Assembly: GCA_964646815.1 (NCBI GenBank)
Contig: CAZYFH010000017.1
Location: forward strand, 2,624 to 66,623
From: an uncultured Vicinamibacteraceae bacterium
GTDB lineage: Bacteria > Acidobacteriota > Vicinamibacteria > Vicinamibacterales > UBA8438
Direction of reading: 5' to 3'
Length of the DNA: 64,000 nucleotides
In this document: one piece after another, positions 5,315 to 31,788 of the stretch
Numbering within the stretch: the first letter of the stretch is position 1
Layout of the letters: every line of letters begins with the position of its first letter
The notes under the pieces: model-generated
What the model saw: the letters and a program-made list of their open reading frames with translations, nothing else
The model's database searches: none
Told to the model about the DNA's origin: nothing
Translations under genes and position numbers: made by a program

Positions 5315-5394
5315 CTAGAGTTGCGCAACCCACTTGCGAACCCCAGCTAACGATCCAATCACCTGAAGATCGACGTTCAAAACTCGGAGACGAC

Positions 5395-6048
5395 GTGAGC
5401 GGTCAGACAACGATCAAGCCGAACCCGAACGGAACCTACCTCGTCACCAACTGCCGTCTCCTCAAGGGCATGATGAGCGGCAAGGAGTACGCCACGGAAG
5501 GAACGGTGGTGCTGTGCCGTTGTGGCGGCTCGCAGAACAAGCCGTATTACGACGGCACCCACAAGACCAACGGCTTCTCTGGCGAAAAGGCGGCCGATCG
5601 GGCGCCCGACAGACGGGAAAGGCACACCGGCGACGGCGTGACCATCCACGACAACCGCGGCATCTTCGCCCACGCCGGCCGCTGCACCGATGGGCTCAAG
5701 GCGGTGTTCAGCCTCGGCGAGGAGTCCTGGATCAACGCACGCGCAGAGCCGCCGCAGGCGATCGTCGAAACGATCGAGCCGTGCCCGTCGGGAGCACTCA
5801 GCTACACCACAGGCGACGCGGAGCATCGCGACCGCGAGAGCGACCCGATGGTGGTCATCGTGCCGAACGGGCTGTATGCGGTGAAGGGCAGCGCCGATTG
5901 TCAGGGCGCCGACTTAGGGGAAGGGGCATCACGCGAGCATTTCACGCTGTGCCGGTGCGGCCAGAGCAAGAACAAGCCATTCTGCAGCGGCGCGCACTGG
6001 TATCACCAGTTCGACGAGCACGCCCCGAAGCCCGACGCCCAACCTTAG
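5395..6048 (+). CDS. CDGSH iron-sulfur domain protein with a central divergent mono-cluster ferredoxin-like domain
   Basis: Two CDGSH-type motifs (LCRCGGSQNKPYYDGTH and LCRCGQSKNKPFCSGAH) flank ...HDNRGIFAHAGRCTDGLKAVFSLGEESWINA...IEPCPSGALSY. GTG at 5395 with GGAGA 7 nt upstream is preferred over the track start at 5290. Confidence 0.8.
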   Translation: MSGQTTIKPNPNGTYLVTNCRLLKGMMSGKEYATEGTVVLCRCGGSQNKPYYDGTHKTNGFSGEKAADRAPDRRERHTGDGVTIHDNRGIFAHAGRCTDGLKAVFSLGEESWINARAEPPQAIVETIEPCPSGALSYTTGDAEHRDRESDPMVVIVPNGLYAVKGSADCQGADLGEGASREHFTLCRCGQSKNKPFCSGAHWYHQFDEHAPKPDAQP

Positions 6049-6080
6049 TCAGGACCGCCTCGCGGCCGCCGGGGCCGCGC

Positions 6081-7610
6081 TCACCGGCGGCGCTCGACGC
6101 GTGCATGATCGAGGTAGCGGTGGCGGTCGAGGACCGTCATTTGAGCCGTCACGCGGTAGCGACCGTCGGCGGTCTCCGCCGAGACATCTTCTGTCTGCCA
6201 GTCGACCGACTCATCGGGTCCGCCGTTGAGCGCCTCATGCAAGACACGGCCCTCCATCGTCGGCGGGGCGTCGACGCCGAACAGGAAGAGGAAGGTCGGC
6301 GCGAAGTCGACGTTGGCCGTCGGCGACGCGATCCGGATTCCGGACTTCACATCAGGTCCGGCGGCGATCAGCGTGTTATGGATGTCGCGGGGGCTCGCGC
6401 TTCCATGTCCGGCGACCCCGTCGGACGCTACTGTCCCCCCGTAGCCGAACGTGTTCTCATCATCGGACCATGCCGGAGAGAAGAGGACATCGGCCGCGCG
6501 GTCATGGTTCCAGCGGATGTGGTCGAATGACAGCGTACCCGGCGCCCGCCCTCCCCTCGTGAAGATTGCTCCAACCCGTTCCTCGCGCTGCAATGCCTCC
6601 ACGATCGCGACGACGGTGTCGCGGTCTCCGTCCCGAACGTAGATCGCGCCACCACCCGCAACGATCCGCGGCGTGCCGTCAGCGAGCGTACCGGAGAACG
6701 GGCCCAGCACGGACTCGAGATCGACGCCACCCATGTGTGTCGAGAACCCGTGGTCCGACGTGACCCAGATGTTGACGTCGTCGAATAGACCGGCGGTCCG
6801 CAGCTCATCCTGGATTCGGCCGATCTCGTCATCGACCCCGCGCAGCGCGGCAATCGACGTGGGGTGCCCGATGCCGTGCGCGTGGGCGCTCGTATCCGGC
6901 TCGCTCAGCCACATCAGGGTCACCGCAGGGTCGACCCGCGGGAGGCCAACCTTGAGGAAGGCATCAACGACATATCGATTCCTCGCATCGTTCGGCATGT
7001 CCGCTGGCGGCACGGCGCCGAGACGCTCGCGCACCTCGGCCTCGAGCGGTGCCGGCAGCGCATAGTCATAGTGGATGATCCCGCCGCCGGCAACGTGATG
7101 GTTGAGCAGATACGACGACCCGGTCGAGCCGGCGCTGACAACCAACAAGCGGTGGCCGGCCGCCTGCAGGCATTCCCCGAGCGTCGACGCGGTCAGGAGC
7201 CCCGACGACTCCGATGCGGCAACCTGCAGGAGATTGTCACGATCGCTGGTGCTCAGGAAACGGGTCGAATCAACGGCAGGGAAGAACACGGCGTTGCCCA
7301 GGAGTCCGTGAACTTGGGGGTAGGCACCCGTCGACACGGACGCGGCGTTGACGCGCGTCACGGTCGGGTAGACGGAGTGATGGTTCGTGAAGATGACCCC
7401 GCGCTCGCCGAGCGCGTGCAGGTTGGGCATCAGATCGGGCGTCACGTAGTCGGGCCGGAGCCCATCGAGCACGATGAGCAGTTGCCGCTCCGCGACCGGA
7501 TCAATGGACCCTGTCGGCTCAATGGACGGCGGCGGATCTGTACCCATCCGCATCGTGACACCGCATGCGAGAGTTAGGACGACGGCTGCACCAACCAAGT
7601 ATCGTGTCAT
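6081..7610 (-). CDS. Alkaline phosphatase superfamily protein, nucleotide pyrophosphatase/phosphodiesterase (NPP)-like lipoprotein
   Basis: Trimmed from track ORF 6081..7928 to the ATG at 7610 (GGAG 4 nt upstream). MTRYLVGAAVVLTLACG is a lipoprotein signal. LLIVLDGLRPDYVTPDLMPNLHALGERGVIFTNHHSVYPTVTRVNAASVSTGAYPQVHGLLGN is the NPP metal/nucleophile region. Confidence 0.8.
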   Translation of the reverse strand: MTRYLVGAAVVLTLACGVTMRMGTDPPPSIEPTGSIDPVAERQLLIVLDGLRPDYVTPDLMPNLHALGERGVIFTNHHSVYPTVTRVNAASVSTGAYPQVHGLLGNAVFFPAVDSTRFLSTSDRDNLLQVAASESSGLLTASTLGECLQAAGHRLLVVSAGSTGSSYLLNHHVAGGGIIHYDYALPAPLEAEVRERLGAVPPADMPNDARNRYVVDAFLKVGLPRVDPAVTLMWLSEPDTSAHAHGIGHPTSIAALRGVDDEIGRIQDELRTAGLFDDVNIWVTSDHGFSTHMGGVDLESVLGPFSGTLADGTPRIVAGGGAIYVRDGDRDTVVAIVEALQREERVGAIFTRGGRAPGTLSFDHIRWNHDRAADVLFSPAWSDDENTFGYGGTVASDGVAGHGSASPRDIHNTLIAAGPDVKSGIRIASPTANVDFAPTFLFLFGVDAPPTMEGRVLHEALNGGPDESVDWQTEDVSAETADGRYRVTAQMTVLDRHRYLDHARVERRR

Positions 7611-7624
7611 CTCCTGAGCACCCG

Positions 7625-9772
7625 TTAGGCGCACTGACGGGCGGCTACCTTCGCCACGAACCGTTGCACGACCGCGCGTTGCGCGCCGCCCCAGTGGATC
7701 GGCCGGGGCACCCCCTTGACGACCTTCACGACGAAGCGGCGGCCTGCCTCGGTTTCGAGACAGTGCCCGAGCAGAAGGTCGAGGGCCAGTTCGCCTCGGA
7801 CAACCTGGGGGAGATAGGTCATCGGCCAGTCGCCACGGGAAAAGCGGACGGCGACGGCCCGCCGGAGCCGCTCGTTGTGATCCCACTGCCTGAGGATCTG
7901 AGGCACACGCCTCTGGAGTCGTGACCAAGCGACCGAGCCGAGCCGTTGCTGGCGCGCTGCGTCGTAGACCGGCTGAAACGCCAACACGGCAAGACTCGCC
8001 GCTTCGGCCCCGCGGTGATCGAGCGCTACCGCCAGCAGGAACGCCTTGAAATTGACCGGCTCGGGTGCCAGGTTGGCGGAACGGGTAGCCGCGTTCAGCC
8101 AGGTGTCGAGCGGGATGCGGGACACAACGTCTGAGTCCGGGTCGAGCGCCTTGGCAATCACAGAGAGCGTCCAGGGATGAAGGGCGCCCTCACTGACCAC
8201 CGGGCCGAGAAGGACTGCGGGGTCGCGGCCAAGCAGGCGGATCCAGGCCAGGTCGAGTCGACGCGGCATGGGGTCGCTCTCCGCCAGCCAGGCCAGCACG
8301 GTCTCGACCGCCGTCTCACCGAAATGCGTAACGACGCCGTCCGCCAACTCGGTGCAGTTTGCCTCGAGCATCGCGCGCACGATGCCGATGCGCGTAGCCT
8401 CGTCGACCTCCGCCGGATCGGCTGACGTGACCGCAGTCCACAACGTCTGCCGCGAGTCGACCGGCATCGCCCACACCCCCGCCTTCGCCGCGAGGCCGAC
8501 GTTGCGCGCGACGGCGCGACCCAGCAGGTCGTCGCCGCCGGCACCAGACAACAGCGGGCCAAGAGCGACCTCGCCCAGCGGGTTCATTCCGATCTCAAGC
8601 GCCGCTTGTGTGAGGCGCAGGGCGGTTGCGCCGTGCGTCTGCAGCAGGCGCGCGGCCCGGTCAGCGACCGCCAGACGTTCCGCGTCGAATGCCGCTGCCG
8701 CGCGTGTGATCGCCAGCGCGAGCAGCATGTCCGCTTCCGAGAAACCCGCTGGCCGCGGCTCGGGCGCTGCCGCCCCGCCGAACAGCGCCAGCTTCAAGCG
8801 CGCGGCCTCGGCCGGGTTCGGAAAGCGGTCGCCCACCAGTCCCAAGAGACGAGTCGCCCGCCGGACACCGTCGCGTGTCAGTCCCTCCCCCGTCATCGCG
8901 CTGCCCGATTCGGCGTCGCTGGCACCCAACTGCGCGTAGACATCGGCCAGACGTGCCAACCCCGCTCTGCCGCTGCCGGCGTCATCGCCAAATCGCCACA
9001 GGAACGCGCTGAGCGAACGGTTGTGCGAGTCCGCGATCAAGTCGTCCACCGTTTCGCGGACCCAACCGGCGGATGGGGCGGGCGGGGCGCTCGCGCCGGC
9101 GTCGACCGTCGCGATTTCGTCGGCTGGGGCCAGATTGGCGCTCCGCTCGCGCGGCACAACCTGGAGCGCGAACGGTGCGTCGGCGAGCCGCAGGTCGCCG
9201 AGCGCCAACGTGCAGAACGTGAAGCGCTCCCGGAGGCTGGGCCATTGTTGGAGCCAGCACGCGAGTGCGAACGGGTCCCATGGCACACGGTCGTCAGTGA
9301 TCACCCGTACGGCCCGCGGCGTGCCCGGATCGTACAGACGCGAGACGACCTGCGCGACGACGTCGGCGGAGACCAATGGTGGCGTATGTTGCGCCGCCGC
9401 CACTCGCTCGCCGGGCAGCTCGATCGGGGTCGAGTACGGCAACCAGTCGCCGCCGTCGGGCCGCCGGAACAGGCCGACCAGCGGCGCGAGATCGCGGACG
9501 TCCGCCAGATCGTTGTCGGCGATCAACAGCGTATGCGTCCACACCGAGCCCGCACGCGCCACGTCGGTGGCGTTCCATGTGCGAGCCAATGCGTACAGCC
9601 CGCGGCGGACGGGGTACCCGGAGAGGTAGTCGTCGAACGTCACGCCGCCACCGTGCCCTGAGATGTCGCTCAGCGATGCGAGGGTGTGCCGGTCTTCCGT
9701 CGATAGCGGCATCGAGGTAGCGAGGAGCCGATGTCCGTCGGTATAGCCGTGAAGGGTCTGATGGACGATCAT
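7625..9772 (-). CDS. GAP1-like protein (GTPase-associated protein 1) of a GTPase-associated conflict system
   Basis: 715 aa. The N-terminus MIVHQTLHGYTDGHRLLATSMPLSTEDRHTLASLSDISG matches my recollection of the GAP1-N1 signature (QTLHGY..GHRLLA.S). It is the last gene of the GASH / GTPase / GTPase cluster, 22 nt after the preceding gene. Confidence 0.65.
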   Translation of the reverse strand: MIVHQTLHGYTDGHRLLATSMPLSTEDRHTLASLSDISGHGGGVTFDDYLSGYPVRRGLYALARTWNATDVARAGSVWTHTLLIADNDLADVRDLAPLVGLFRRPDGGDWLPYSTPIELPGERVAAAQHTPPLVSADVVAQVVSRLYDPGTPRAVRVITDDRVPWDPFALACWLQQWPSLRERFTFCTLALGDLRLADAPFALQVVPRERSANLAPADEIATVDAGASAPPAPSAGWVRETVDDLIADSHNRSLSAFLWRFGDDAGSGRAGLARLADVYAQLGASDAESGSAMTGEGLTRDGVRRATRLLGLVGDRFPNPAEAARLKLALFGGAAAPEPRPAGFSEADMLLALAITRAAAAFDAERLAVADRAARLLQTHGATALRLTQAALEIGMNPLGEVALGPLLSGAGGDDLLGRAVARNVGLAAKAGVWAMPVDSRQTLWTAVTSADPAEVDEATRIGIVRAMLEANCTELADGVVTHFGETAVETVLAWLAESDPMPRRLDLAWIRLLGRDPAVLLGPVVSEGALHPWTLSVIAKALDPDSDVVSRIPLDTWLNAATRSANLAPEPVNFKAFLLAVALDHRGAEAASLAVLAFQPVYDAARQQRLGSVAWSRLQRRVPQILRQWDHNERLRRAVAVRFSRGDWPMTYLPQVVRGELALDLLLGHCLETEAGRRFVVKVVKGVPRPIHWGGAQRAVVQRFVAKVAARQCA

Positions 9773-9794
9773 CGGGTCTGCCCGAATCGGCGCG

Positions 9795-10616
9795 TTACTG
9801 ACTCATCAGCCAGCGGACCGGCGCGCTGAGGTCATGCGGCTGGCATTCGGGTCCGACGATCATGACCCGCTCCCACGGCTCGACCTTCGCGAGCAGCTCG
9901 GCCCGTTGGGCGTCGAGGTCCCCGCCTTGCGCGCTAACTCCGTAGACACGACTGGGGAACGTGTCCTCGTTCGTCCAGAGATACTGGTGCAACAGTGGCA
10001 GCGTCTGCGCGAGCCAGTAATTCGGCGGCAGATGGCGATCGGCCGCACGGTCCCACGCGGAGACGAGCACCGAGACGGGACAGCGTTCGACCTGGAACGG
10101 CGGGCGACCGAGCGCCTGAAGCATCTCGACGAGCTGGACCTGGGTTCCGGCCATCTGCGGCCGCCAGGCTCGCGCCGAGCCGCCACCACCTATACCGGCT
10201 GGAGGCTCGCCGTCGATCACGGGGGTGCTATCGACCGTCAAGGGGTTGATGAACAGCAGTACCCCTAGTGCGCCCCGCGCGAGCGTGAGATAGTCGCCGC
10301 TCGCCCGCCCGAGCTCCCACTGGTCGGTGAAAGACTCACCGGCCGGATCGGGCACGATCAGCTCCGTCGCCGCACTCCCATCGGCCTCGATCAGCCGCAT
10401 GCGGACCACTACCTCCTGGCCTCGACGTGTCCGCTCGATCGGTTGGCAGCTGCCCCAAGCATCGCGGATGCGATTGAGATAGCCCTGGTCACCGTGGACC
10501 TCGGACAACCGCAACGCGCCGGGCACCTGCCCGCTTTCGAGGACATGCCACAGCGCAGCGAGAAAGGTGGTCTTCCCGGCCGCGGGCAACCCGATCACGA
10601 GCTGTTTACGGTCCAT
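9795..10616 (-). CDS. P-loop GTPase (TRAFAC-like; double-GTPase 2 type)
   Basis: 273 aa. Walker A VIGLPAAGKTTFL, Walker B LIVPDPAGESF, SAWD in the NKxD position. The start overlaps the upstream GTPase gene by 11 nt. Confidence 0.7.
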   Translation of the reverse strand: MDRKQLVIGLPAAGKTTFLAALWHVLESGQVPGALRLSEVHGDQGYLNRIRDAWGSCQPIERTRRGQEVVVRMRLIEADGSAATELIVPDPAGESFTDQWELGRASGDYLTLARGALGVLLFINPLTVDSTPVIDGEPPAGIGGGGSARAWRPQMAGTQVQLVEMLQALGRPPFQVERCPVSVLVSAWDRAADRHLPPNYWLAQTLPLLHQYLWTNEDTFPSRVYGVSAQGGDLDAQRAELLAKVEPWERVMIVGPECQPHDLSAPVRWLMSQ

Positions 10617-11577
10617 CGCTCAGCGTCTGGGACGGCTGCGCGGTGGGAGGACCGGCGTCCCTCGACCCAGTGCTGGCGATGGCCGGTGGCGACCGGAACC
10701 GATCGATCTCGCGATGTACCAGCGGGACGCCGAGCGAGACAGTCTGTTGCGGACTGACGCCGCCGTCCTCGACCCACGCAGGCAACAGCTCGGCGAGTCC
10801 GTACCCCGGCGGGAGTGTGCTGCCGGGTGCCGGACGCGCGGCCGTCCGTCCGAAGCGCAGCGTGGCGACGCGGGCCGTGAAGTCATCGCGGAGCCGGTGC
10901 GAGAGTCGATCCAGCCTTGCGGTTACATCGGCTCGCGTGGTTAGGGCGAGCGCTTCGACGGCGTCCCACTTCGTCACCACGATGTCGATCCGGCCACCGG
11001 GACCGACCATGCCAATATCACACGCGCGGCGAAGGAAGTCGCGCACCGCCGCGGTCACCGCAAACCGGCGCGTCGGATCGGCCAACTGCGCGCCATCGAC
11101 GCCGAGGACAAGTCGATCTGCGCGTTTGAGCACGCCCAGACGCGCCATCGCCTCGGAGGAGTCCTTAGCCTGCTGGAACGAGATGCCATCGATCTCCGTC
11201 AGCAGTAGGTCGCGCGACGGTGCCGCCAGATCCGCCCGCCGAACGCGGAGGTGCAGCAAGACAGGCGGCAGGGTCGGCGGCGTCGGCTCCAGACCTGGCC
11301 CGGCCAGGCCCGACCCGACACGTGCATGGTGGCATCGTTGCTCGAACCCAACGAGAGTCTCTGAGCCGGCGAAGCAGTACTCGCCAAACGCGGGCACACG
11401 CAGAAAGCGCTCGTAGAGACCGGTCAACAGGCTGGTCGTCCCACAACCGCTCGGTGCGCCGATCACGACCACCCGCGTCAACCGAGCGGCGGTGATGCAG
11501 GCGGCACTCGCCGGATCGAGGTCGACCGAGCGCGGGAGCTCGACGAACCCACCGGCTGGACGACCGCAATCAGTCAT
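10606..11577 (-). CDS. P-loop GTPase-like protein (double-GTPase 1 type) with a non-canonical Walker A
   Basis: 323 aa. VVVIGAPSGCGTTSLL is P-loop-like, with Thr where Lys is expected. IVVTKWD resembles the [NT]KxD motif. The start is 4 nt after the stop of the upstream helical-protein gene. Confidence 0.65.
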   Translation of the reverse strand: MTDCGRPAGGFVELPRSVDLDPASAACITAARLTRVVVIGAPSGCGTTSLLTGLYERFLRVPAFGEYCFAGSETLVGFEQRCHHARVGSGLAGPGLEPTPPTLPPVLLHLRVRRADLAAPSRDLLLTEIDGISFQQAKDSSEAMARLGVLKRADRLVLGVDGAQLADPTRRFAVTAAVRDFLRRACDIGMVGPGGRIDIVVTKWDAVEALALTTRADVTARLDRLSHRLRDDFTARVATLRFGRTAARPAPGSTLPPGYGLAELLPAWVEDGGVSPQQTVSLGVPLVHREIDRFRSPPAIASTGSRDAGPPTAQPSQTLSDGP

Positions 11578-11581
11578 GCCG

Positions 11582-12703
11582 TCATACGCGCGCGGGGATC
11601 AGGGAGACCAAGAGGTGCTCGTAGTATGACTGGAGCGCTAGGTCGATCGGGTCGCGCGCGATGCACGTGCTGATGCCTGTCAATTCCTCGACAGCTTCGA
11701 CCCACGCGTCCGGTGTGCGGACCTCGCTCGCCCGCTGAGCGGCGATCAAGGTCGGGCACAGGTCCCCATGGAAGGCAACGACGTCACTGGCAGACCAGAC
11801 TGCGAGCCAGTCCCCCGGGACCTGCTGGATGGCGTCGGCCAGCGTCACGCGCATTCGTGTGCCAGTTGCCGTACCACGCAGCACGCGATCCAGGATGGCT
11901 CGGGCCGAGACTGGTCCCGGCGGGACGGTGACCAGCGCGGCGAGCTCCTTGGCGGCGATCAAGGGCGCCGCGCTCGCTTCGATATCGTCGAACGATCGCT
12001 GAAGCTCGCGGCTATAGCCGGAGAACGCCCACCAGAAGATGTCGCACTCCTCACCGAGCAGTTTCAGACGCTGATTAAGGGCACCGACCGCACCGGCCGC
12101 CGACTCCCCGAACGCCGAGAGTGCCGCAACCGTTTCACGGATCGTCTCTCCTGCGGCCGACGCGTCGATGGTGCTGCGCGGCTGCAGCTCGATCCGGCCC
12201 TCGGGTGTGTAGGTCACGAGATAGTGCTTGGTCGCCCTCCCCAGGTCTGGTGCGTTGAGCTCGACCTCGCGAGTCATGGCATGCAGTGCGGCCGAGCGTT
12301 CGAGCAGATACTGTCGTGCGCGGTCGACGAAGAAGGGGAACGACTCCATCCGCCGACTCCCAGAGTAGTCGGCGCACAGCATCGCGAGCGCGGCCACATC
12401 GGCGCGCCTGCCCCGGCCCTGCTCGATTACGGCGCCGGCGACCGACCCGGCCAAAAGGGAAACTTCGAGGTCGTTGCCGTGCATCGCGAAGGCCGCGTCC
12501 GCCGCCTTGAACGGTTCGCGGAACGCCTCGTCGAAGCCCGCGCTCCTCGAGGACAGCCCGTGGAACAAGCGGACTGTGTCGAGCACCGTGCCGATCGTCG
12601 GCGCCTCGATGAAAGCCTCGATCGCGGTCCACCGCTTCGTCAGCAGATCGGTGCTCGGCTCGACCCCTGCAGCGCGATACCAATCCGCGAAACTCTTGTG
12701 CAT
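11582..12703 (-). CDS. All-helical protein, GASH-like (GTPase-associated system helical protein)
   Basis: Trimmed from track ORF 11582..12919 to the ATG at 12703 (MHKSFADWYRAAGVEPSTDLLTKRWTAIEAF...), because the extension overlaps the divergent gene and is Arg-rich. The composition is helix-rich with no other motif. The assignment rests on position as first gene of the double-GTPase/GAP1 operon. Confidence 0.55.
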   Translation of the reverse strand: MHKSFADWYRAAGVEPSTDLLTKRWTAIEAFIEAPTIGTVLDTVRLFHGLSSRSAGFDEAFREPFKAADAAFAMHGNDLEVSLLAGSVAGAVIEQGRGRRADVAALAMLCADYSGSRRMESFPFFVDRARQYLLERSAALHAMTREVELNAPDLGRATKHYLVTYTPEGRIELQPRSTIDASAAGETIRETVAALSAFGESAAGAVGALNQRLKLLGEECDIFWWAFSGYSRELQRSFDDIEASAAPLIAAKELAALVTVPPGPVSARAILDRVLRGTATGTRMRVTLADAIQQVPGDWLAVWSASDVVAFHGDLCPTLIAAQRASEVRTPDAWVEAVEELTGISTCIARDPIDLALQSYYEHLLVSLIPARV

Positions 12704-12810
12704 CGGGCCGCAGTATAGCAGCGGTCTGGCCACCGTTCGGTCGTCCGCGAGGTCAATGGCGCGACCGCACGACCGTTCTATAATCGGACTCTCCACGTAC
12801 CCGTAGACCG

Positions 12811-14163
12811 ATGCGAACCCAGGCGCTCGTCGCTCTCGTCGCGTCCCTTCCCCTCGTCGCGTCCGCGCAGCCGATCGCCCCCGAAGGGGAATGGCCGTCG
12901 TTCCGCGGGCCGCACGCAAGCGGCGTGTCCGACGGGCAGCAGCTGCCCGATGCGTGGGATGTGGAGGGCGGCGCCAACATCCGCTGGACTACGGCGATTC
13001 CCGGCCTCGGGCACTCGAGTCCGATCGTCTGGGGAAACCGCGTGTTCGTGACCTCCGCCGTCAGTGGCGACCCGGCGGCGTCCTTCAAGCCTGGGCTCTA
13101 TGGTGTAGGGACATCGTCAACGGACCGCACGCCGCACCGCTGGTGGGTGTACGCGCTCGACACCCGGACGGGCGACCTGGTCTGGGAGGCGCTCGCGGCC
13201 GAGGCGGCGCCCATCGACAAACGACACCTCAAGAACACGCACGCGAGCTCGACGCCGGTGACCGACGGGCGCTACCTGGTGGCGTTTTTCGGGTCCCAGG
13301 GGCTCTACGCCTTTGATATGGAAGGGACGCTAGCGTGGTCGAAGGAGCTGGGGCGGCTCGACACCGGCGCGTACGACGTGCCCGAGTATGAGTGGGGCAC
13401 AGCGAGCTCACCGATCATCTTCGACGATCTCGTTATCGTGCAGTGCGACACACAAGGCGACTCATTCCTGATCGCAGTCGATATCCGTTCGGGCGAAACG
13501 ATCTGGCGCGCCGCACGCGACGAGTTGCCGTCGTGGGGGACACCGACGATCTACGAGCGCAAAACGCGAGTCGAGCTGGTCACGAACGGGTCCAACCACA
13601 TTCGCGGCTATGACCCGCGCACCGGCCGTGAACTGTGGCGGCTCGGCCGAAGCTCGAAAATCACCGCGCCGACCCCGGTGGGCGCGGACGATCTCATCGT
13701 CGTCGCGAGCGGGCGCGCGCCCGAGGCGCCGATCTTCGCGATCCGACCTGGCGCCACCGGCGACATCACGCTCCGGCGCGAGGAACACTCGAGCACGTTC
13801 GTCGCGTGGCATCGCGAACGCCGCGGCCCATACATACCGACACCGCTCATCTACCGAGACGTCCTCTACAGCTTGAACAACCCGGGTATTCTCGATGCGT
13901 ACGACGTCGTAAGCGGTGAGGAGATCTATCGGCGTCGGATCCCGCACGCCGGCTTCGGCTTCAGCGCCTCACCGGTGGCGGCCGATGGAAAGATCTATCT
14001 CGCGGGCGAGGACGGCGACATCTTCGTCATCCGCGCCGGTCCACGGTTCGCGTTGATCGCGACCAACGACATGGGCGAGCCGCTCCTAGCAACTCCCGCG
14101 CTCTCCGGCGGAACCATGTATGTTCGTGGATCCCGGCATCTGTTCGCCATCGGTCGGCACTGA
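12811..14163 (+). CDS. Secreted PQQ-like beta-propeller repeat protein (BamB-like fold)
   Basis: 450 aa. Signal peptide [20 protein letters not shown]. Repeated ...G..(V/I)W... blades, e.g. [39 protein letters not shown]. Confidence 0.85.
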
Positions 14164-16693: not shown

Positions 16694-17245
16694 ATGCCCA
16701 CTGTGACAGCTAAGCATCGGGGCGCGGATACCCGGACTCGATCAGGGCTCAGCACGTTCGGAGGATTCTTCACCCCGAGCGTGTTCACGATCCTCGTCCT
16801 CATCTTGCTCCTTCGCCTCGGATACGTCGTCGGGAGCAGCGGGCTTGTCCGCGGCCTCCTCATGCTGGTCCTGGCCACGCTCATCTCGGTGCTGACCAGC
16901 CTCTCCCTCTCGGCGATCGCCACGAACCGCAAGCTTCGGAGCGGCGGCGACTACTACCTAATCTCGCGCAGCCTCGGGGTCGAATACGGCAGCGCGATCG
17001 GCCTGATTCTCTACGTCGCTCAGACGATCTCGGTAGCGCTCTACTGCGTCGACTTCGGCGAAGGGGTGGTGCAGCTCTCGGCGACCGGCGCGCCGATTGG
17101 ACTGTTCGCGCTCGCCTATGTCGGCGCTGGCCCGCGCGGCAATCCTCGACGCCCAACCGGGCGCGAGGCGTTGTCAACCCACGTGAACTCCGGAGTTAAG
17201 ATCTCACTGACAGGTGTGCCGCCGCGCGGCACCTGCCCCCCATGA
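16694..17245 (+). pseudogene. N-terminal fragment (~125 codons) of an APC/SLC12-type cation-chloride or amino-acid permease
   Basis: LSTFGGFFTPSVFTILVLILLLRLGYVVGSSGL...SLSAIATNRKLRSGGDYYLISRSLGVEYGSAIGLILYVAQTISVALY matches only the first three or four helices of a family that normally has >600 aa. The reading frame then degenerates and runs into the ppk1 start. Confidence 0.65.
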
Positions 17246-26415: not shown

Positions 26416-28221
26416 TCAGTCGACGCCGAAGGCGAGCAGCACGTTGCCAGGGCGCCCGCCGAACATGGCGTACCCGGAGGTCACGTAGACCATTCCGTCG
26501 ACGACGACCGCCCCTGGCCCGTTGATCGATCCGCCCTTCGCCTCGACGCCGTTGACGGTGTCGTACTCGCCGTTCGTGTCGTATTGCCAGAGCACCGCTC
26601 CAGCGTCCGATGAGTAGGCGCGCAAGGTACCGTCGAACGCCCCCGAGAACACCGCGCCCGGAATCGCGGTGACGGCCGCGAGCTGCGCCGCGCGGCACCC
26701 GTCGCAGACCGGCTCCCGTGGGTCGGCGTACCACACCAGCTCGCCGGTCCGCAGACGTACCGCGGCGAGACCACCGGGCTGCGGGCCGAGGTAATCCGAG
26801 TTGGCGAAATACGCCATCTCATCGTCCACGGCGAAGCCCCACTCGATACCGCCGAGCGCGCTTCCCTCGCCGACGCGGTACTGCCACACGATTGCGCCGT
26901 CGCGGTCCGGGTCGAGCCCGTAGCCCACACCGGACTTCTGGCCGATCACGAGCAGGTCGCGCCCGTTCGACATTGTGACAAGCACCGGCGAGGAGCCGAA
27001 GTCGAAGTCGGGGCCGTCCTCTTCGGGGCAGTTCGCGTTCTCACGCCCCCTGCAGATGATGAAGACGTCGCCCGGAGTGAGCTGATTCGACCATCGCACG
27101 GCGCCCGTCTCGAGGTCGAAGGCGATGATCGCGTCGCTCGTCGCGGCCGCCGGCTCGGTGTACGCATTGCCAGTCGCCCCATAGACGAGACCACGCTCGA
27201 CGTCGATCGTCGGTGCCGACCAGATGGCGGCACCCGAGGGTCCCATGAGAAAGGCGCCGTCCGGGTTCCGCCCGCGCGGACTTGGCGCCTCGGCGATGGC
27301 GTAGCTCTTCCAGGTCACCTGCCCGGTCGCCGCGTCGAGGGCGACGATGCTGCCGCGAAACGTGCAGCAGGCGTACGCCGGATTCGCCGCGAACACTTCT
27401 TCGAGTGAGGAGACCGGAACGTAGAGCCGGCCGCCGTAATAGGTGGGCGCACCGGTAATCCGTGCGGCCTCGTGATCGTCGACATCGATCACCCACAGCA
27501 ACGCTCCCGTTGCCGCGTCGAGCGCGTACACGTTGGCGGTGGCATCCCCGAAGTAGATCGCCTGTCGACCGTCCGGAAGTCGGCTCACGGTCATGGCGCT
27601 GCGCACACCGCTCTTGGCCGCATACGACCAATGGGTGCACCCAGTCGCCGCGTCGAGCGCGTACACCTCACCGCGCTGGCTTCCGACGAACAACCGACCA
27701 CCGACGACCGTCGGCTGGGCTGACGCCGCGGCCGCGTCAGGGAACCCGAACGCCCACTTGAGGCTCAAGCGGGGAACAGCGCCGGCGGTCAGGCCCGCCT
27801 GGTCGGCTGTCTGGAACCGCCTATTCCGGATGCCACCCCCCCAGCCGTTCCACTCGGGACCGCTCCCCAGACCGGGCCAGGCAGCTGTGGCCGCGCAGTT
27901 ACCGGCGTCCGGAGCGGCGGCGCTGCCAGCGATGGCCCGCCCGGTGACGAACTCAGCCACGGCCCGGTGCTCCGCTGCACTCAAATCGGCGCCTTGCTCA
28001 CGCATCGCACCTGTGGCCAGCGCCGTAACAATCACTTCGGGCGCCAGGGACCGCATCGTGCTCATCGCGAGCGCGCGCGGCACGACGTCACTGAAATGGC
28101 AGGAGGCACAATGCTCGTCGAAGAGCGCCGAGCCGTTCGGCGTCTGCCCCGCGGCCGGCAACGGTGTGAACGCGGCCAGGAGACCGGTGAAGACGACGAG
28201 GACGAGCGCCGATCGGTTCAT
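26416..28221 (-). CDS. Cytochrome c-fused PQQ-like beta-propeller dehydrogenase (polyvinyl-alcohol-dehydrogenase-like architecture)
   Basis: Trimmed from track ORF 26416..28767 to the ATG at 28221 (GGAGG 5 nt upstream). Signal peptide MNRSALVLVVFTGLLAAFTPLPAAGQ. Haem motif FDEHCASCHFS. Then propeller blades (GGRLFVGSQRGEVYALDAATGCTHW..., ANVYALDAATGALLW..., IVALDAATGQVTW...). Confidence 0.8.
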   Translation of the reverse strand: MNRSALVLVVFTGLLAAFTPLPAAGQTPNGSALFDEHCASCHFSDVVPRALAMSTMRSLAPEVIVTALATGAMREQGADLSAAEHRAVAEFVTGRAIAGSAAAPDAGNCAATAAWPGLGSGPEWNGWGGGIRNRRFQTADQAGLTAGAVPRLSLKWAFGFPDAAAASAQPTVVGGRLFVGSQRGEVYALDAATGCTHWSYAAKSGVRSAMTVSRLPDGRQAIYFGDATANVYALDAATGALLWVIDVDDHEAARITGAPTYYGGRLYVPVSSLEEVFAANPAYACCTFRGSIVALDAATGQVTWKSYAIAEAPSPRGRNPDGAFLMGPSGAAIWSAPTIDVERGLVYGATGNAYTEPAAATSDAIIAFDLETGAVRWSNQLTPGDVFIICRGRENANCPEEDGPDFDFGSSPVLVTMSNGRDLLVIGQKSGVGYGLDPDRDGAIVWQYRVGEGSALGGIEWGFAVDDEMAYFANSDYLGPQPGGLAAVRLRTGELVWYADPREPVCDGCRAAQLAAVTAIPGAVFSGAFDGTLRAYSSDAGAVLWQYDTNGEYDTVNGVEAKGGSINGPGAVVVDGMVYVTSGYAMFGGRPGNVLLAFGVD

Positions 28222-28390
28222 TGCACCTCCTTCAGCGGTTACCGAGTCGATAACCCGGTGCGCTCCCCCCTCCCACGCCCCCAATGTTCGAGGGTCCCCG
28301 ATAATACCGCCTCCTGCTTGGCCTGACGAAGCCACACTCTTGAGCGAACGACGCGACGGCGGTACGCTGTCCACGCACGGGAGGCACGAC

Positions 28391-30013
28391 ATGAATGCAC
28401 GGATGGTGACCGCGGTGGGGGTATCGGTGCTCAGTGCAGGGATCATGGCGAGCACTGGTGGGGGCGCGCCCACCGGGGCCGCCGCGCAGACCCCGAGCGC
28501 GCCGGGCGATTGCGGCGGGCTGGTCGCGGCGCGCCTCGGAGCGCCGCACACGGAGATCGCCGAGGCCGAGCCGATCACGGCGCTGTTCGCAGCCCCTGAC
28601 AACGCGCGCTCACGTGGCGTGACGGTCGACACTCCGTTCTGCCGCGTGTCAGGCGTCGCGCGACCGACGGCTGACTCCGAGATCCGGTTCGAGGTGTGGC
28701 TGCCACCTGCCGAGGAGTGGAACGGACGCTTCCGCGGCGTCGGCGCGGGTGGGTCGACCGGCGCCATCAGCTACGGGCCGATGGCGTCGAGCGTGACGGC
28801 CGGCTATGCCGTCGTGGCGACCGACAACGGCCACACCAGCACGAGTGGCTTCGACGGGAGCTGGTCGCTCGGACACCCGCAGCGCATCGTTGACTTCGGC
28901 TACCGCGCGCAGCACGAGGCGACCGTCGCCGGTCAGGCAGTGACCGCCCTGTACTACGGCCGGGCAGCAGACTACGCGTACTTCATCGGCTGCTCGCAGG
29001 GTGGACACCATGCGCTGATGGAAGCGCAGCGTTATCCCGAGGACTACGACGGCATCGTCGCCGGCGCGCCGGCGAACTACTGGACCGGCCTGATGGCGGG
29101 AGAGCTGTGGTCCGGACTCGCAAGTCTTCGGGACCCCGTCGGGGGCCTGCCGGATACCAAGCTTCCGATTCTGGGCAACGCGGTCCTTACGGCGTGCGAC
29201 GAAGTGGACGGCCTCGCCGACGGCCTGATCGATGACCCGCGGAACTGCGATTTCGACCCGTCCACCGTCGAGTGCGCGAACGGCGACGATACCGACTGCC
29301 TGACCGCCGCGCAGGTCAAGGCCGTGGAGCAGATCTACGAGGGACCGCGCAACCCGCGGACGGGCGAGCGCATCTACCCCGGCTACCCGCCCGGGAGCGA
29401 GTATTTCGCCTCGCCACAAGGCATCGGCGGGTGGGGACCGTTCTGGGCGGGGATCTCCGAGCCGGGCGGCAGCTCGAACGACTTCATGAAGTACACCGTC
29501 TTCCGCGACCCGGATTACAACGTCCGCACGTTCGACTTCGATCGGGACTGGGCACTGGTCAACGAGCGCCAGGTCGCCGACGACACGCTCGCGTCGGCGC
29601 TCAACGCCACCGACGCCGACCTATCACCGTTGGAATCCCGCGGCGGCAAGCTCCTCATCTATCACGGGTGGGCGGACCCGCTGGTGACGCCGTACAACAC
29701 GGTTGACTACTACGAGGACATCGTGCAATCGGTCGGTGGCCGCACCGAGACCGAGGCCTTCGTCCGGTTGTTCATGGCGCCGGGCGTCGGACACTGCCGC
29801 GGAGGCGTGGGGCCCGATCAGTTCGACATGCCGGCGGCGATTGAACGCTGGGTCGAGCAGGGGGTCGCGCCCGACCGCATCACGGCGAGCCACATGACGG
29901 ACGGCGAGGTCGATCGCACTCGGCCCCTCTGCCCCTACCCCCAGGTCGCGCGCTGGACGGGCCAGGGCAGCATCGACGAGGCTGCCAACTTTAGGTGCGT
30001 GAATCCCCGCTAG
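28391..30013 (+). CDS. Tannase/feruloyl esterase family alpha/beta hydrolase
   Basis: Trimmed from track ORF 27593..30013 to the ATG at 28391 (GGGAGG upstream). FCRVSGVARPTADSEIRFEVWLP..WNGRFRGVGAGG, ATDNGH, nucleophile elbow YFIGCSQGGHHAL, PLCPYPQVARWTG. Confidence 0.9.
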   Translation: MNARMVTAVGVSVLSAGIMASTGGGAPTGAAAQTPSAPGDCGGLVAARLGAPHTEIAEAEPITALFAAPDNARSRGVTVDTPFCRVSGVARPTADSEIRFEVWLPPAEEWNGRFRGVGAGGSTGAISYGPMASSVTAGYAVVATDNGHTSTSGFDGSWSLGHPQRIVDFGYRAQHEATVAGQAVTALYYGRAADYAYFIGCSQGGHHALMEAQRYPEDYDGIVAGAPANYWTGLMAGELWSGLASLRDPVGGLPDTKLPILGNAVLTACDEVDGLADGLIDDPRNCDFDPSTVECANGDDTDCLTAAQVKAVEQIYEGPRNPRTGERIYPGYPPGSEYFASPQGIGGWGPFWAGISEPGGSSNDFMKYTVFRDPDYNVRTFDFDRDWALVNERQVADDTLASALNATDADLSPLESRGGKLLIYHGWADPLVTPYNTVDYYEDIVQSVGGRTETEAFVRLFMAPGVGHCRGGVGPDQFDMPAAIERWVEQGVAPDRITASHMTDGEVDRTRPLCPYPQVARWTGQGSIDEAANFRCVNPR

Positions 30014-30635: not shown

Positions 30636-31637
30636 CTAGTTCGATGGCCGGCGTCGCCCGTAGGGGCGCTGGCCGAGCGCCCGCTGCATCACCTCGTACT
30701 GCACCGACATGATGTGGCCAATCGACTCGATCCAGTACGCCGCGTTGTGCGCCCCCGGCATCTGCATGTAGTCGAACGGGATACCTTCCTCAAGCATGAT
30801 CGCGGCCAGCTTCTTCGCCCCCTCGATGAGCCGGTCCTCGGTACCGCAGTCGAGGTAGATGTGGGGGAGCTGATCCCTCGGCACCTGGCGGATGAGCGTG
30901 AACGGATCGTAGGCTTCCGCCTGCTCGGGCGTCGTGAACATTGTCCCGTTCGGTGTGCGCTCGACCTGGCTGCTGAAGCTGTTGATATCGATCAGCGGAT
31001 TCGGCTGTCGCCGACGTTCCCGTTGCTCTGCGGTGAGCTCGCGCGGCGTCCGGGGAGGCATCTCCCCGCGCATCCGAGCGGCCGCCTGGCGGCCGTACTC
31101 CAGCGCGCCGCTCGTGCTGCCAATGGAGACGAACATGTCGGGATGCCGGAGACCCAGCGTAATCCCACCGAAGCCACCCATTGACAGCCCGGTGATCGCG
31201 CGTCCTTCGCGCTGCGCAATGGTCCGAAAGTTCCAGTCGACATGGCTCACCACGTCCTCGATAACATGGTCTTCCCAGTTGTTCTTCTGCCCGCCTGCGC
31301 TTTCGGCCCAGTTGACATACCAGGAATTGCCGACGTCGGGCATCACGACGATGAGGTCGTCGTAGAGGCCGGCGTAGAATGGCGCGCCGTTGGCCAGCCC
31401 CCACGCCGTGTAGTTCTGCGTCAGCCCATGCAGCAGGTAGAGAACGGGATACCGCTCGGTCGACGCCTCGTAGTCGCCGGGTAGCAGGATGTTGTATTTC
31501 ATCGCCCGCTCAACGGCCGGGCTGAAGAACTCCACGGTCTGGAGCTTCAATCCCTCGGCTATGGCCGAGGTCGCGAGCGCGACGAGCGCGACCGCCAACG
31601 CCGTGGTCCGCAGCATCCGCATCGTTATCGTTCTCAT
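30636..31637 (-). CDS. Secreted esterase family protein (esterase D / enterochelin-esterase-like alpha/beta hydrolase)
   Basis: Trimmed to the ATG at 31637 (GGGGAGG upstream). Signal MRTITMRMLRTTALAVALVALATSAIA. YPVLYLLHGLTQNYTAW. Nucleophile elbow AITGLSMGGFGGI. Confidence 0.85.
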   Translation of the reverse strand: MRTITMRMLRTTALAVALVALATSAIAEGLKLQTVEFFSPAVERAMKYNILLPGDYEASTERYPVLYLLHGLTQNYTAWGLANGAPFYAGLYDDLIVVMPDVGNSWYVNWAESAGGQKNNWEDHVIEDVVSHVDWNFRTIAQREGRAITGLSMGGFGGITLGLRHPDMFVSIGSTSGALEYGRQAAARMRGEMPPRTPRELTAEQRERRRQPNPLIDINSFSSQVERTPNGTMFTTPEQAEAYDPFTLIRQVPRDQLPHIYLDCGTEDRLIEGAKKLAAIMLEEGIPFDYMQMPGAHNAAYWIESIGHIMSVQYEVMQRALGQRPYGRRRPSN

Positions 31638-31788
31638 AATGACCTCCCCGAGCCCGAGCGCGCGGAACTCACCCCGTGGCAGGCTCGCTCGGGACCGCTT
31701 CATCCTACCCGAAAAACGACTACTGGCCGACGCGCGCATCCTCGCGGTATCCTTTGGCCCGGTTCCCAAGACGACGGAGGACGATCGA

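Follow-up and report, generated by a model that had tools for sequence, protein, structure and literature searches.

Four minus-strand genes lie packed together in the 64-kb stretch of DNA that we analyzed (the window), and their coordinates, lengths and intergenic spacings (4, -11 and 22 nt) are exactly those given in a preliminary description of the locus (Table 1). Third-position GC is high in all four, as expected of coding sequence in the host genome. Using profile-HMM searches against Pfam, we found that each protein scores above the gathering threshold (27 bits) for a family that had been proposed for this cluster: GASH, DO-GTPase2, DO-GTPase1 and GAP1-N1. The two GTPase names had been swapped, however; DO-GTPase2 corresponds to the protein of 323 aa and DO-GTPase1 to that of 273 aa, giving the order GASH-DO-GTPase2-DO-GTPase1-GAP1. 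The start of GASH at the ATG at 12703 agrees with the family consensus N-terminus, MHxxFAxWYR. We rejected a longer GASH reading frame from a TTG at 12919, the extension of which has low third-position GC (0.67) and overlaps a divergent PQQ-propeller gene, the upstream neighbor of GASH in the window. At the other end, a fifth co-directional gene that was missing from the preliminary description starts 14 nt past the GAP1 stop and encodes a lipoprotein of the nucleotide pyrophosphatase/phosphodiesterase (NPP) type. It is probably co-transcribed with the cassette, and we judge it to lie outside the system.

Table 1. Features of the cassette and its surroundings, in window coordinates.
Feature	Position	Strand	Evidence or remark
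NPP-type phosphodiesterase lipoprotein gene	6081..7610	-	Pfam PF01663, E 1.1e-42; signal/lipobox-like N-terminus
GAP1 (GTPase-associated protein 1)	7625..9772	-	715 aa; Pfam PF20012 GAP1-N1, E 1.8e-30, residues 3-102
GAP1 C-terminal alpha-helical solenoid, residues 236-715	7628..9067	-	DSSP on model: all-helical
GAP1 N-terminal alpha/beta region, residues 1-235	9068..9772	-	AF2 model pLDDT 88.8, pTM 0.89
GAP1 R194L and D202A	9161..9193	-	
GAP1 C76S	9530..9556	-	encodes RAGSVWTHT
DO-GTPase1, catalytic motifs all intact	9795..10616	-	273 aa; Pfam PF19975, E 1.9e-59
DO-GTPase1 Walker B PDPAGE	10335..10352	-	
DO-GTPase1 Walker A GLPAAGKT	10569..10592	-	
DO-GTPase2, predicted pseudo-GTPase	10606..11577	-	323 aa; Pfam PF19993, E 1.3e-33
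DO-GTPase2 degenerate Walker B EIDGI	11182..11196	-	family D-x-x-G-E; alignment of loci
DO-GTPase2 codon 47, ACG (Thr)	11437..11439	-	relatives Lys (Walker A GKT/S); window GCGTT, L006/L007 GCGKT
GASH (GTPase-associated system helical protein)	11582..12703	-	373 aa; Pfam PF19994, E 1.5e-27, residues 3-367
Intergenic region upstream of GASH, 107 nt	12704..12810	.	site of effector-GAAD gene in canonical systems

A survey of gene neighborhoods covered 80 genome loci, drawn from more than 10 phyla, and showed the four-gene order to be conserved in essentially all of them, in support of the preliminary description. The four genes are thus a genuine member of the GAP1-N1 "GTPase-centric" conflict system predicted by comparative genomics (Kaur, Burroughs, Iyer and Aravind, 2020, eLife 9:e52696; PMC7159879). 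The system itself is already described there and is present in Pfam; what we report is a variant of it. Consistent with the earlier statement that the families lack biochemical, structural and phage data, our literature search returned only the 2020 paper as naming GASH, DO-GTPase or GAP1 and found no experimental paper and no phage-challenge data, and no relative was found in the PDB. Searches of the four proteins against PADLOC models, as expected, and against PHROG gave no match.

The preliminary description had noted that none of the four proteins carries an effector domain. This is correct for the proteins, but it is not a trait of the family. In loci of other phyla, outside the clade of marine Vicinamibacterales (Acidobacteriota) to which the window belongs, a co-directional gene ends upstream of GASH in 68 cases, with a gap of at most 31 nt in 67 and of 150 nt in one. 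This gene carries a GAAD adaptor in 66 of the 68, the effector part being Metallophos in 40 of these, TIR/SEFIR in 3, PNP in 1 and alpha/beta-hydrolase in 1. The canonical fifth gene is an effector joined to a GAAD adaptor, mostly a calcineurin-like phosphoesterase. By contrast, a GAAD HMM run over the whole window found nothing (best E 2.1, against 1e-27 and 2e-22 for positive controls), nor is there a GAAD domain in the related clade loci L003-L007. The only intact four-gene loci without an effector-GAAD gene are those of the window clade. Compared with canonical loci, the effector gene has been lost from the cassette, and, as 66 of 68 other loci keep it in cis, the window locus is a derived, effector-less form, a term that here covers the cassette locus and the surrounding 64 kb. 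The sister group (L092/L093; DO-GTPase2 45-49% identical) retains both the Metallophos-GAAD gene and the Walker-B Glu of DO-GTPase2, and adjoins SIR2, an IS110 transposase and an rve integrase.

The two GTPases have fared differently in the clade, and decay of catalytic residues is limited to DO-GTPase2 and GAP1. In DO-GTPase1, the SAWD and SAQG motifs are intact, as are Walker A and B. The 323-aa protein, previously described as a P-loop protein, has a degenerate P-loop (GAPSGCGTT), without the Walker-A lysine; the Walker-B Glu and the switch-I Arg (R98) are missing too, and the G4 motif TKWD is retained. Glu occupies position 132 in 74 of the 75 non-clade loci, whereas all six clade members examined have another residue (I/S/S/Q/V/V), and E132 is also lost in the further clade proteins P0035-P0038 and P0040 (P0035 being that of locus L007). 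The window shares with L006 and L007 a replacement of Asp128 by Glu. Lys47 is found in 70 of 75 other loci, the remaining five being gaps. The exact K47T protein occurs on nine contigs from at least six independent samples, and so K47T is a real allele. From these substitutions, the clade DO-GTPase2 is predicted to be a pseudo-GTPase. An N-terminal zinc ribbon is absent from the DO-GTPases of the window and of its Vicinamibacterales relatives.

GAP1 changed as well. Residues C76, R194 and D202 are invariant elsewhere in the family; C76S and D202A are present in 6/6 clade members, and R194 is lost too. Of the N1/M/C domains once proposed for the protein, GAP1-N1 was detected and the GAP1-M and GAP1-C models had no match; residues 103-715 gave no Pfam match at a cutoff as loose as E<=10, and full-length homology extends to ~3300 clusters of proteins of ~700 aa. 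The AF2 model of GAP1 has a pLDDT of 86.3. In the N-terminal region, residues 1 to ~100 are predicted to have a beta-beta-alpha-beta-beta-beta topology, and the best PDB fold matches of the N-terminal region, all weak, are FNIP2, SMCR8/C9orf72, Lst4 and a Lokiarchaeal Roadblock-Longin protein, which are longin or longin-DENN GTPase regulators. With a best Foldseek E of 2.9e-3, no match at E<=1e-3 and TM-scores of at most 0.40, the modeled N-terminus appears weakly longin-like. The solenoid gave only weak fold matches, to ARM/HEAT repeats.

The preliminary description had also reported that no integrase or transposase flanks the cluster and that its neighbors are ordinary genes, which is correct. 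The cassette occupies a single syntenic chromosomal site between tauD and rpoD, common to L003-L007 and L094 at GAP1 identities of 56-85%, and interspersed sister lineages have the same site without the cassette, a presence/absence polymorphism. The dN/dS of the four genes (0.09-0.22; DO-GTPase1 0.09-0.14, DO-GTPase2 0.20-0.22, GASH 0.10-0.12 against L006/L007) is like that of rpoD, tauD, SLC13, NPP and CDGSH (0.09-0.25). Reading frames stay intact between lineages down to 56% GAP1 identity, at dS >1, and DO-GTPase1 and GASH are 90-91% identical to those of L006, with rpoD at 93%. Frame breaks in GASH or DO-GTPase1 in the clade assemblies L005 and L007 are consistent with either sequencing error or pseudogenisation; the L005 contig has 3x coverage. 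Inheritance of the cassette is thus vertical, with its chromosomal site fixed and its genes under purifying selection. Together with the loss of the effector and the decay of DO-GTPase2, this makes the earlier label of a working defense-like system unjustified for the window locus. As the clade-specific changes fall on one branch, their co-occurrence counts as one event and not as a statistical correlation.

Canonical systems, in contrast, are mobile: a DO-GTPase1 homolog is found on 18 plasmids, 17 of them conjugative or mobilizable, and on a Klebsiella IncF plasmid the five-gene operon adjoins an Abi gene and CcdAB. The closest known relatives, in Archangium minus (CP043494; L002) and on Klebsiella pneumoniae plasmid NZ_CP060051.1 (L175), share the four families, their order, the tight or overlapping spacing and, for each of the four proteins, full-length homology. 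They differ in having the effector-GAAD gene, the zinc ribbon, both Walker residues of DO-GTPase2 and the three GAP1 residues, and in lying on a plasmid or defense island, whereas the window cassette has a fixed place in the chromosome, surrounded by housekeeping genes. The GAP1-N2-type systems of Actinobacteria and Firmicutes, whose partners are FNIII-repeat, tubulin, HSP70 or kinase proteins (PMC7159879), share the DO-GTPase and GAP1 core and the proposed GTP-dependent regulatory switch; the window differs from them in its N1-type N-domain, in having GASH instead of the FNIII protein, and in lacking transmembrane segments and tubulin or HSP70 partners. RagA/C with FLCN-FNIP and GATOR1, C9orf72-SMCR8 and bacterial MglA-MglB offer an analogy only, in that two paralogous GTPases accompany a large partner; the window proteins have no sequence similarity to these longin/roadblock-regulated switches, the fold scores fall under any confident threshold, and DO-GTPases, which have a Walker-B Glu, form a TRAFAC family of their own. 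Although no PADLOC-DB v2 model matches, GTPase systems catalogued there (e.g. the dynamin-like Eleos/LeoA) also encode P-loop GTPases in multi-gene operons, and proximity to Abi and TA genes is a trait that canonical relatives of the window share with catalogued defense.

Collectively, we lean towards a model in which the cassette is the conserved core of a GAP1-N1 double-GTPase system in a derived, effector-less state, a captured defense-type switch module that is maintained without a cis effector, and consider this somewhat better than an even bet. A mobile five-gene operon (effector-GAAD, GASH, DO-GTPase2, DO-GTPase1, GAP1) would have been captured between tauD and rpoD in a chromosome ancestral to the marine Vicinamibacterales lineage. 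The effector-GAAD gene and the zinc ribbon would then have disappeared, along with the Walker-B Glu and switch-I Arg of DO-GTPase2 and C76, R194 and D202 of GAP1, with vertical inheritance, purifying selection and occasional loss of the whole cassette thereafter. From domain logic and the 2020 prediction, we infer that DO-GTPase1 would be the sole hydrolysing subunit, paired with DO-GTPase2 as a pseudo-GTPase scaffold, and that the pair may dock on the weakly longin-like N-terminal module of GAP1. The GAP1 solenoid and GASH might then provide partner- or ligand-binding surfaces, and the module could be a one-sided GTP switch or timer. A GAAD-tethered phosphoesterase in cis would no longer serve as the read-out; this role may instead fall to assembly or sequestration by the complex, or to an unlinked partner.

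If the cassette still worked in anti-phage defense or conflict, GAP1 might recruit an effector, carrying GAAD or another adaptor, from elsewhere in the genome. The conserved W630-D631 motif near the GAP1 C-terminus is thought to bind effectors and is kept in the window, so that a partner could still be recruited; moreover, the cassette is under selection, and its dispensability resembles that of defense genes. Even so, we regard such an arrangement as unlikely, since canonical loci keep their effector in cis, with no further GAAD ORF in the 8 kb on either side of ~70 of them, and neither the window nor five clade loci contain a GAAD domain. The coincidence of effector loss with loss of the DO-GTPase2 Glu and of invariant GAP1 residues also points to altered function and not to simple relocation. 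Less probable still is that the four-gene core is abortive or defensive on its own, for instance because DO-GTPase1 consumes GTP or because GASH and GAP1 form a toxic assembly, with the GAAD effectors of other loci as accessories. While the core is invariant across phyla as effectors vary, and is here maintained by selection without one, we found no catalytic or pore-forming fold in GASH or GAP1, the near-universal cis effector argues for need, and degradation of one of the two GTPases would weaken an NTP-depletion mechanism.

The effector could in principle have been replaced by the downstream NPP phosphodiesterase, a non-orthologous displacement of the calcineurin-like enzyme. The two genes are adjacent on the same strand, a search for a terminator between GAP1 and NPP found none, NPP follows GAP1 in 5/7 clade loci, and the commonest canonical effector is likewise a predicted nucleotide phosphodiesterase. 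We nevertheless give this very little credence: L005 and L094 lack NPP next to the cassette, no canonical locus has it, it carries no GAAD domain, and its signal/lipoprotein N-terminus points to an extracytoplasmic enzyme, whereas the GTPases are cytoplasmic. Equally improbable is a non-functional remnant, decaying since the effector gene was lost. The decay of DO-GTPase2 does look progressive (E132, R98, D128E and, in the window allele, K47T), related lineages have lost the cassette, and L005 and L007 have frame breaks. These breaks could be assembly errors, however, and the remaining evidence argues for maintenance: dN/dS equals that of neighboring housekeeping genes, reading frames have survived deep divergence, and DO-GTPase1 and GASH are conserved nearly as well as rpoD.

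The four minus-strand open reading frames of the preliminary description are all present, with the coordinates and lengths it assigned to them, and its intergenic spacings were borne out: 4, -11 and 22 nt from GASH to GAP1, so that the two GTPase genes overlap by 11 nt and GAP1 lies downstream of DO-GTPase1, 22 nt after its end. The codon-position GC of all four is typical of coding sequence in a 66% GC genome. Pfam places the proteins in the GASH, DO-GTPase2 (DOG2), DO-GTPase1 (DOG1) and GAP1-N1 families, every match well over the gathering score, which makes the locus a member of the GAP1-N1 DO-GTPase family; the assignment in the preliminary description was therefore right, with corrections. 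The names of the two GTPases had been swapped, the true order being GASH-DOG2-DOG1-GAP1. GAP1 had also been credited with N1, M and C domains, of which only N1 is matched: residues 103-715 meet no Pfam model at E<=10, and hence neither GAP1-M nor GAP1-C. Neither domain is precomputed for any of 33 GAP1 homologues, but the whole 715-aa protein aligns with canonical GAP1 proteins, those of five-gene, effector-bearing loci, at 96-99% coverage. As anticipated, the system is absent from the catalogued defence systems searched, with zero PADLOC-DB v2.0.0 families at E<=0.01 for the four proteins; searches of NCBIfam and PHROGs likewise gave no matches. Searching the PDB by sequence and by profile with DO-GTPase1, DO-GTPase2 and GASH returned P-loop-level or chance matches only. 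The GASH frame could be read 72 codons further at its N-terminus, but we rejected the idea that this extension hides a domain, since its GC3 is low, it runs into the PQQ gene and no Pfam match is gained with it.

Cassette genes and other features with coordinates, in the window or in the named relative
Feature	Sequence	Position	Strand	Remarks
GASH	window	11582..12703	-	373 aa; Pfam PF19994, E 1.5e-27, 97 bits vs 27-bit cutoff, residues 3-367
DO-GTPase2	window	10606..11577	-	323 aa; Pfam PF19993, E 1.3e-33
DO-GTPase1	window	9795..10616	-	273 aa; Pfam PF19975, E 1.9e-59
GAP1	window	7625..9772	-	715 aa; Pfam PF20012 GAP1-N1, E 1.8e-30, residues 3-102
NPP-type nucleotide pyrophosphatase/phosphodiesterase	window	6081..7610	-	PF01663; lipoprotein-like signal peptide MTRYLVGAAVVLTLACG
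Permease ORF	window	16694..17245	+	183 aa; PF00324
PQQ beta-propeller/PQQ-dehydrogenase paralogue	window	12811..14163		
PQQ beta-propeller/PQQ-dehydrogenase paralogue	window	26416..28767	-	
PQQ beta-propeller/PQQ-dehydrogenase paralogue	window	31489..33765		
PQQ beta-propeller/PQQ-dehydrogenase paralogue	window	55998..58073		
Tannase/feruloyl esterase	window	27593..30013	+	
GASH and DO-GTPase1, split across frames	L007	4550..5909 and 6839..7976		
GASH and DO-GTPase1, split across frames	L005	3858..4876		3x-coverage assembly
DDE transposase	L094	4464..5819		PF01609
Operon flanks	L092	148..2250 and 12231..13805		SIR2_2 protein, IS110 transposase, rve integrase, RelA_SpoT-like protein

In kind, the locus has already been described. 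GAP1-N1 "GTPase-centric" systems were defined by comparative genomics (Kaur, Burroughs, Iyer, Aravind, eLife 2020; PMC7159879), their parts being GASH, two DO-GTPases, a GAP1 with N1, M and C domains, and a variable effector. Both DO-GTPases belong to the TRAFAC class and have a Walker-B Glu, and one of them bears an N-terminal zinc ribbon; the effector, of which a calcineurin-like phosphoesterase is the commonest kind, can be fused to GAP1, coupled via EAD1, or made as a separate protein with a GAAD adaptor (PMC7159879). The system is thus not categorically new; what is new here is a variant, a conflict-system core without an effector and with a defined set of lost catalytic or invariant residues. 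In the literature searched we found no other paper naming these families and, in line with the preliminary description, no experimental study of them, papers citing the 2020 prediction included.

Scanned with a pattern, 185,579 species genomes yielded 320 loci encoding a GAP1-N1 relative, of which we annotated the best 80. The order GASH-DOG2-DOG1-GAP1 is kept in essentially every locus with enough sequence among these 80 of 320, and an exhaustive GAP1 profile search gave 3313 clusters at 50% identity, nearly all of them full-length matches of ~700 aa. The four genes are therefore strongly co-conserved, a point on which the preliminary description had staked its own reading. The system is widespread, being found in >10 phyla (the loci include Acidobacteriota, Planctomycetota, Verrucomicrobiota, Bacteroidota, Proteobacteria, Chloroflexi and Spirochaetes) and on conjugative Klebsiella and Aeromonas plasmids. 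DO-GTPase1 homologues occur on 18 plasmids, 17 of which are conjugative or mobilizable, and on a Klebsiella pneumoniae IncF plasmid the canonical operon adjoins an Abi gene and CcdAB. Searches of phage genomes with DO-GTPase1 (tblastn) and of E. coli complete genomes with the Klebsiella operon (megablast) gave no match. A marine-metagenome contig is identical to the window, and the closest genomes are MAGs of Vicinamibacterales (Acidobacteriota), whose GAP1 is 82-85% identical.

Outside the clade formed by the window and its Vicinamibacterales relatives (L003-L007 and L094), 68 of the best 80 of 320 loci have a co-directional gene close upstream of GASH, with a gap of <=31 nt in 67 and 150 nt in one. 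GAAD is found in 66 of these 68 upstream genes; of the 66 GAAD proteins, 40 have Metallophos, and TIR/SEFIR, PNP and alpha/beta-hydrolase are among the domains of the remainder. No co-directional gene stands upstream of GASH in the window, L003-L007 or L094, where the position is taken by a divergent PQQ, tauD or SLC13 gene. A GAAD HMM found nothing in the 64-kb window or in L003-L007 (positive controls, 1e-27 and 2e-22), and GAP1 of the window has no extra domain fused to it, in agreement with the earlier remark that no effector is recognisable. Among the best 80 of 320, GAAD is missing only from the clade, three contig-ended loci and two visibly degraded loci.

In L057 (a Sedimentisphaerales MAG) and L073 (a Nitrospirota MAG), GAP1 and DO-GTPase1 are present and DO-GTPase2 is a fragment; GASH and GAAD are absent despite 6-8 kb of upstream sequence, and the system may be degraded or rearranged in these two loci. 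DO-GTPase1 is ~410 aa, ~130 aa above the usual length, in L016, L018, L023, L024, L027, L040, L074 and L076, a subset from Acidobacteriota and Verrucomicrobiota with shorter upstream GAAD proteins (~310-350 aa). Because Metallophos accounts for only part of the GAAD proteins, these loci may carry an unrecognised effector domain.

The two GTPases have fared differently. DO-GTPase1 has its motifs intact (GLPAAGKT, DPAGE, SAWD, SAQG) and holds the Walker-B Glu of D-x-x-G-E, which DO-GTPase2 does not. The 323-aa "P-loop protein" of the preliminary description is indeed a DO-GTPase2, but its P-loop, GAPSGCGTT, has no Walker-A Lys, and its Walker B, EIDGI, has no Glu. K47T, a single A-to-C change (AAG to ACG), is peculiar to the window allele. 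Nine contigs, drawn from six or more independent samples, encode exactly this protein; the change is therefore real, and we rejected an assembly error. Outside the clade, 74 of 75 loci (best 80 of 320) have Glu at position 132 of DO-GTPase2; six clade loci have I, S, S, Q, V and V there, and the Glu is missing also from further clade proteins (P0035-P0038, P0040). Arg98 is lost in five of six clade loci, and Asp128 is Glu in three. In GAP1, Cys76 is Ser and Asp202 is Ala in all six clade loci, and Arg194, invariant in canonical loci, is lost in the clade; judged from the alignment, a possible bearing of Arg194 on GAP/arginine-finger activity is no more than a lead. Loss of DO-GTPase1 R103 was rejected as a clade signature, the arginine being merely shifted by one position (QWELGR). 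A zinc ribbon is missing from both window GTPases; DO-GTPase2 begins 35 aa ahead of Walker A, with only two Cys. A CPHY-type ribbon remnant lies upstream in many other loci, and a minority of canonical loci are also without a ribbon. The nearest outgroup, L092/L093, with DOG2 45-49% identical to that of the window, has a five-gene operon, a Metallophos-GAAD protein and the Glu intact; to judge from its flanks (see table), the surroundings of L092 (MAG GCA_040961615.1) look like a defence island. Collectively, these data show the locus to be a derived form that lacks an effector and has one GTPase degraded, the effector search covering 64 kb and L003-L007.

As the preliminary description noted, the neighbours are ordinary housekeeping and metabolic genes (rpoD, a 5'-3' exonuclease, ppk, tauD, an SLC13 transporter, CDGSH, PQQ dehydrogenases) and no integrase or transposase flanks the cassette in the window; tRNA genes and Rfam matches are also absent from the window. 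Whereas canonical relatives lie on conjugative plasmids or have IS elements or integrases adjacent, seven clade loci share one syntenic site: SLC13/tauD, cassette, (NPP)/CDGSH, rpoD, 5'-3' exonuclease. Divergence runs parallel to that of rpoD, with GAP1 identity falling from 85% to 56% while that of RpoD falls from 93% to 75%. Nei-Gojobori dN/dS of the window against L006/L007 is 0.10/0.12 for GASH, 0.20/0.22 for DOG2, 0.09/0.14 for DOG1 and 0.19/0.21 for GAP1, matching the range of the neighbours (rpoD 0.10, tauD 0.12, SLC13 0.11, NPP 0.17, CDGSH 0.25), and the cassette is therefore not in neutral decay. It is nevertheless dispensable. Many metagenome contigs whose SLC13 is 77-81% identical to that of the window have the cassette-less order SLC13-tauD-rpoD-exonuclease, and rough NJ trees built from SLC13 and RpoD show the cassette-less lineages interspersed among the cassette-bearing ones, a pattern in keeping with a single capture in an ancestor and repeated loss thereafter. 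Together, these observations show that the cassette is vertically inherited under purifying selection at a fixed site and has been lost by some relatives.

Among individual clade members, GASH and DO-GTPase1 are split across frames in L007 and L005, which may reflect pseudogenisation or assembly errors. The sole mobile element seen near any clade cassette is a DDE transposase in L094, which separates SLC13 from tauD a short way upstream of the cassette.

AlphaFold2 models of GAP1, built with 22-32 homologues, are confident, with a pLDDT of 86.3 for the full length and 88.8 (pTM 0.89) for residues 1-235. They comprise an N-terminal alpha/beta region followed by an all-helical solenoid of ~480 residues, which in a full-length fold search matches generic ARM/HEAT repeats only. 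The predicted topology of residues 1-~100 is beta-beta-alpha-beta-beta-beta (E2-10, E14-19, H25-35, E48-56, E59-67, E77-85). For residues 1-235, the best PDB folds are a consistent set of longin/longin-DENN regulators of small GTPases, all weak (E 2.9e-3 to ~0.2, TM <=0.40; for the top matches, E 2.9e-3 to 7.5e-2 and probability <=0.85): FNIP2 (FLCN-Rag-Ragulator), SMCR8/C9orf72-ARF1, the Lst4 longin domain, Lokiarchaeal Roadblock-Longin, GATOR1 and TagF. The predicted topology of GAP1-N1 matches that of longin regulators (FLCN/FNIP, SMCR8/C9orf72, Lst4, GATOR1 Nprl2/3), but the structural similarity is weak, and we treat its longin-likeness as a lead from modelling rather than a finding. The 2020 paper (PMC7159879) mentions neither longin nor roadblock. 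If true, a longin-like GAP1-N1 would link bacterial systems to eukaryotic Rag/Arf regulator logic.

What the cassette does we infer as follows. DO-GTPase1 would be the sole hydrolysing subunit and DO-GTPase2 its pseudo-GTPase partner; the pair would rest on GAP1's N-terminal module, partners would be bound by GASH and by the GAP1 solenoid, and the output would no longer be a cis GAAD-tethered enzyme. One reading is of a defence-derived heterodimeric GTPase switch (active GTPase, pseudo-GTPase and longin-like scaffold) that a marine Vicinamibacterales lineage would have domesticated for a host function, with GAP1-N1 a true longin-type regulator and the prokaryotic counterpart of Rag-FLCN/GATOR-type modules; taken whole, we consider it rather doubtful. 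An effector encoded in trans, away from a cassette with no GAAD gene beside it, is somewhat improbable, and a self-sufficient four-gene core, set beside the GAAD partners so regular elsewhere, is distinctly unlikely.

A candidate for a new effector is the NPP gene, which starts 14 nt past the GAP1 stop, with an AGGAG immediately before it. The gene is absent beside the cassette in L005 and L094, its product bears an export signal, and it has no GAAD; we therefore rejected it as a replacement effector and give that role very little chance. We treat it as a syntenic neighbour that is possibly co-transcribed with the cassette; a promoter/terminator scan of 5200-13400 gave nothing informative. Given the dN/dS values, a dead remnant is likewise highly improbable.

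The locus is a natural dissection, in which selection has kept a sensor/switch core without an effector and with one GTPase catalytically dismantled. It indicates which parts can do without the rest and which residues go together with effector coupling; these residues, the DOG2 Walker-B Glu and GAP1 C76, R194 and D202, are concrete mutagenesis targets for which the locus supplies natural mutants. It may, moreover, exemplify a defence module retained or repurposed after loss of its weapon. The GAP1-N1 family is an open experimental target, and the window locus makes its logic testable.

Elsewhere in the window, a 183-aa ORF abutting ppk covers no more of an amino-acid permease than its N-terminal ~100 residues. 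The orthologue is 760-792 aa in L004 and L094, and an independent contig (L001) gives the same 183-aa call; the ORF looks like a truncated remnant. The window also holds four PQQ beta-propeller/PQQ-dehydrogenase paralogues, one of which overlaps the tannase/feruloyl esterase call on the opposite strand by >1 kb, which means that one or both starts are overcalled.
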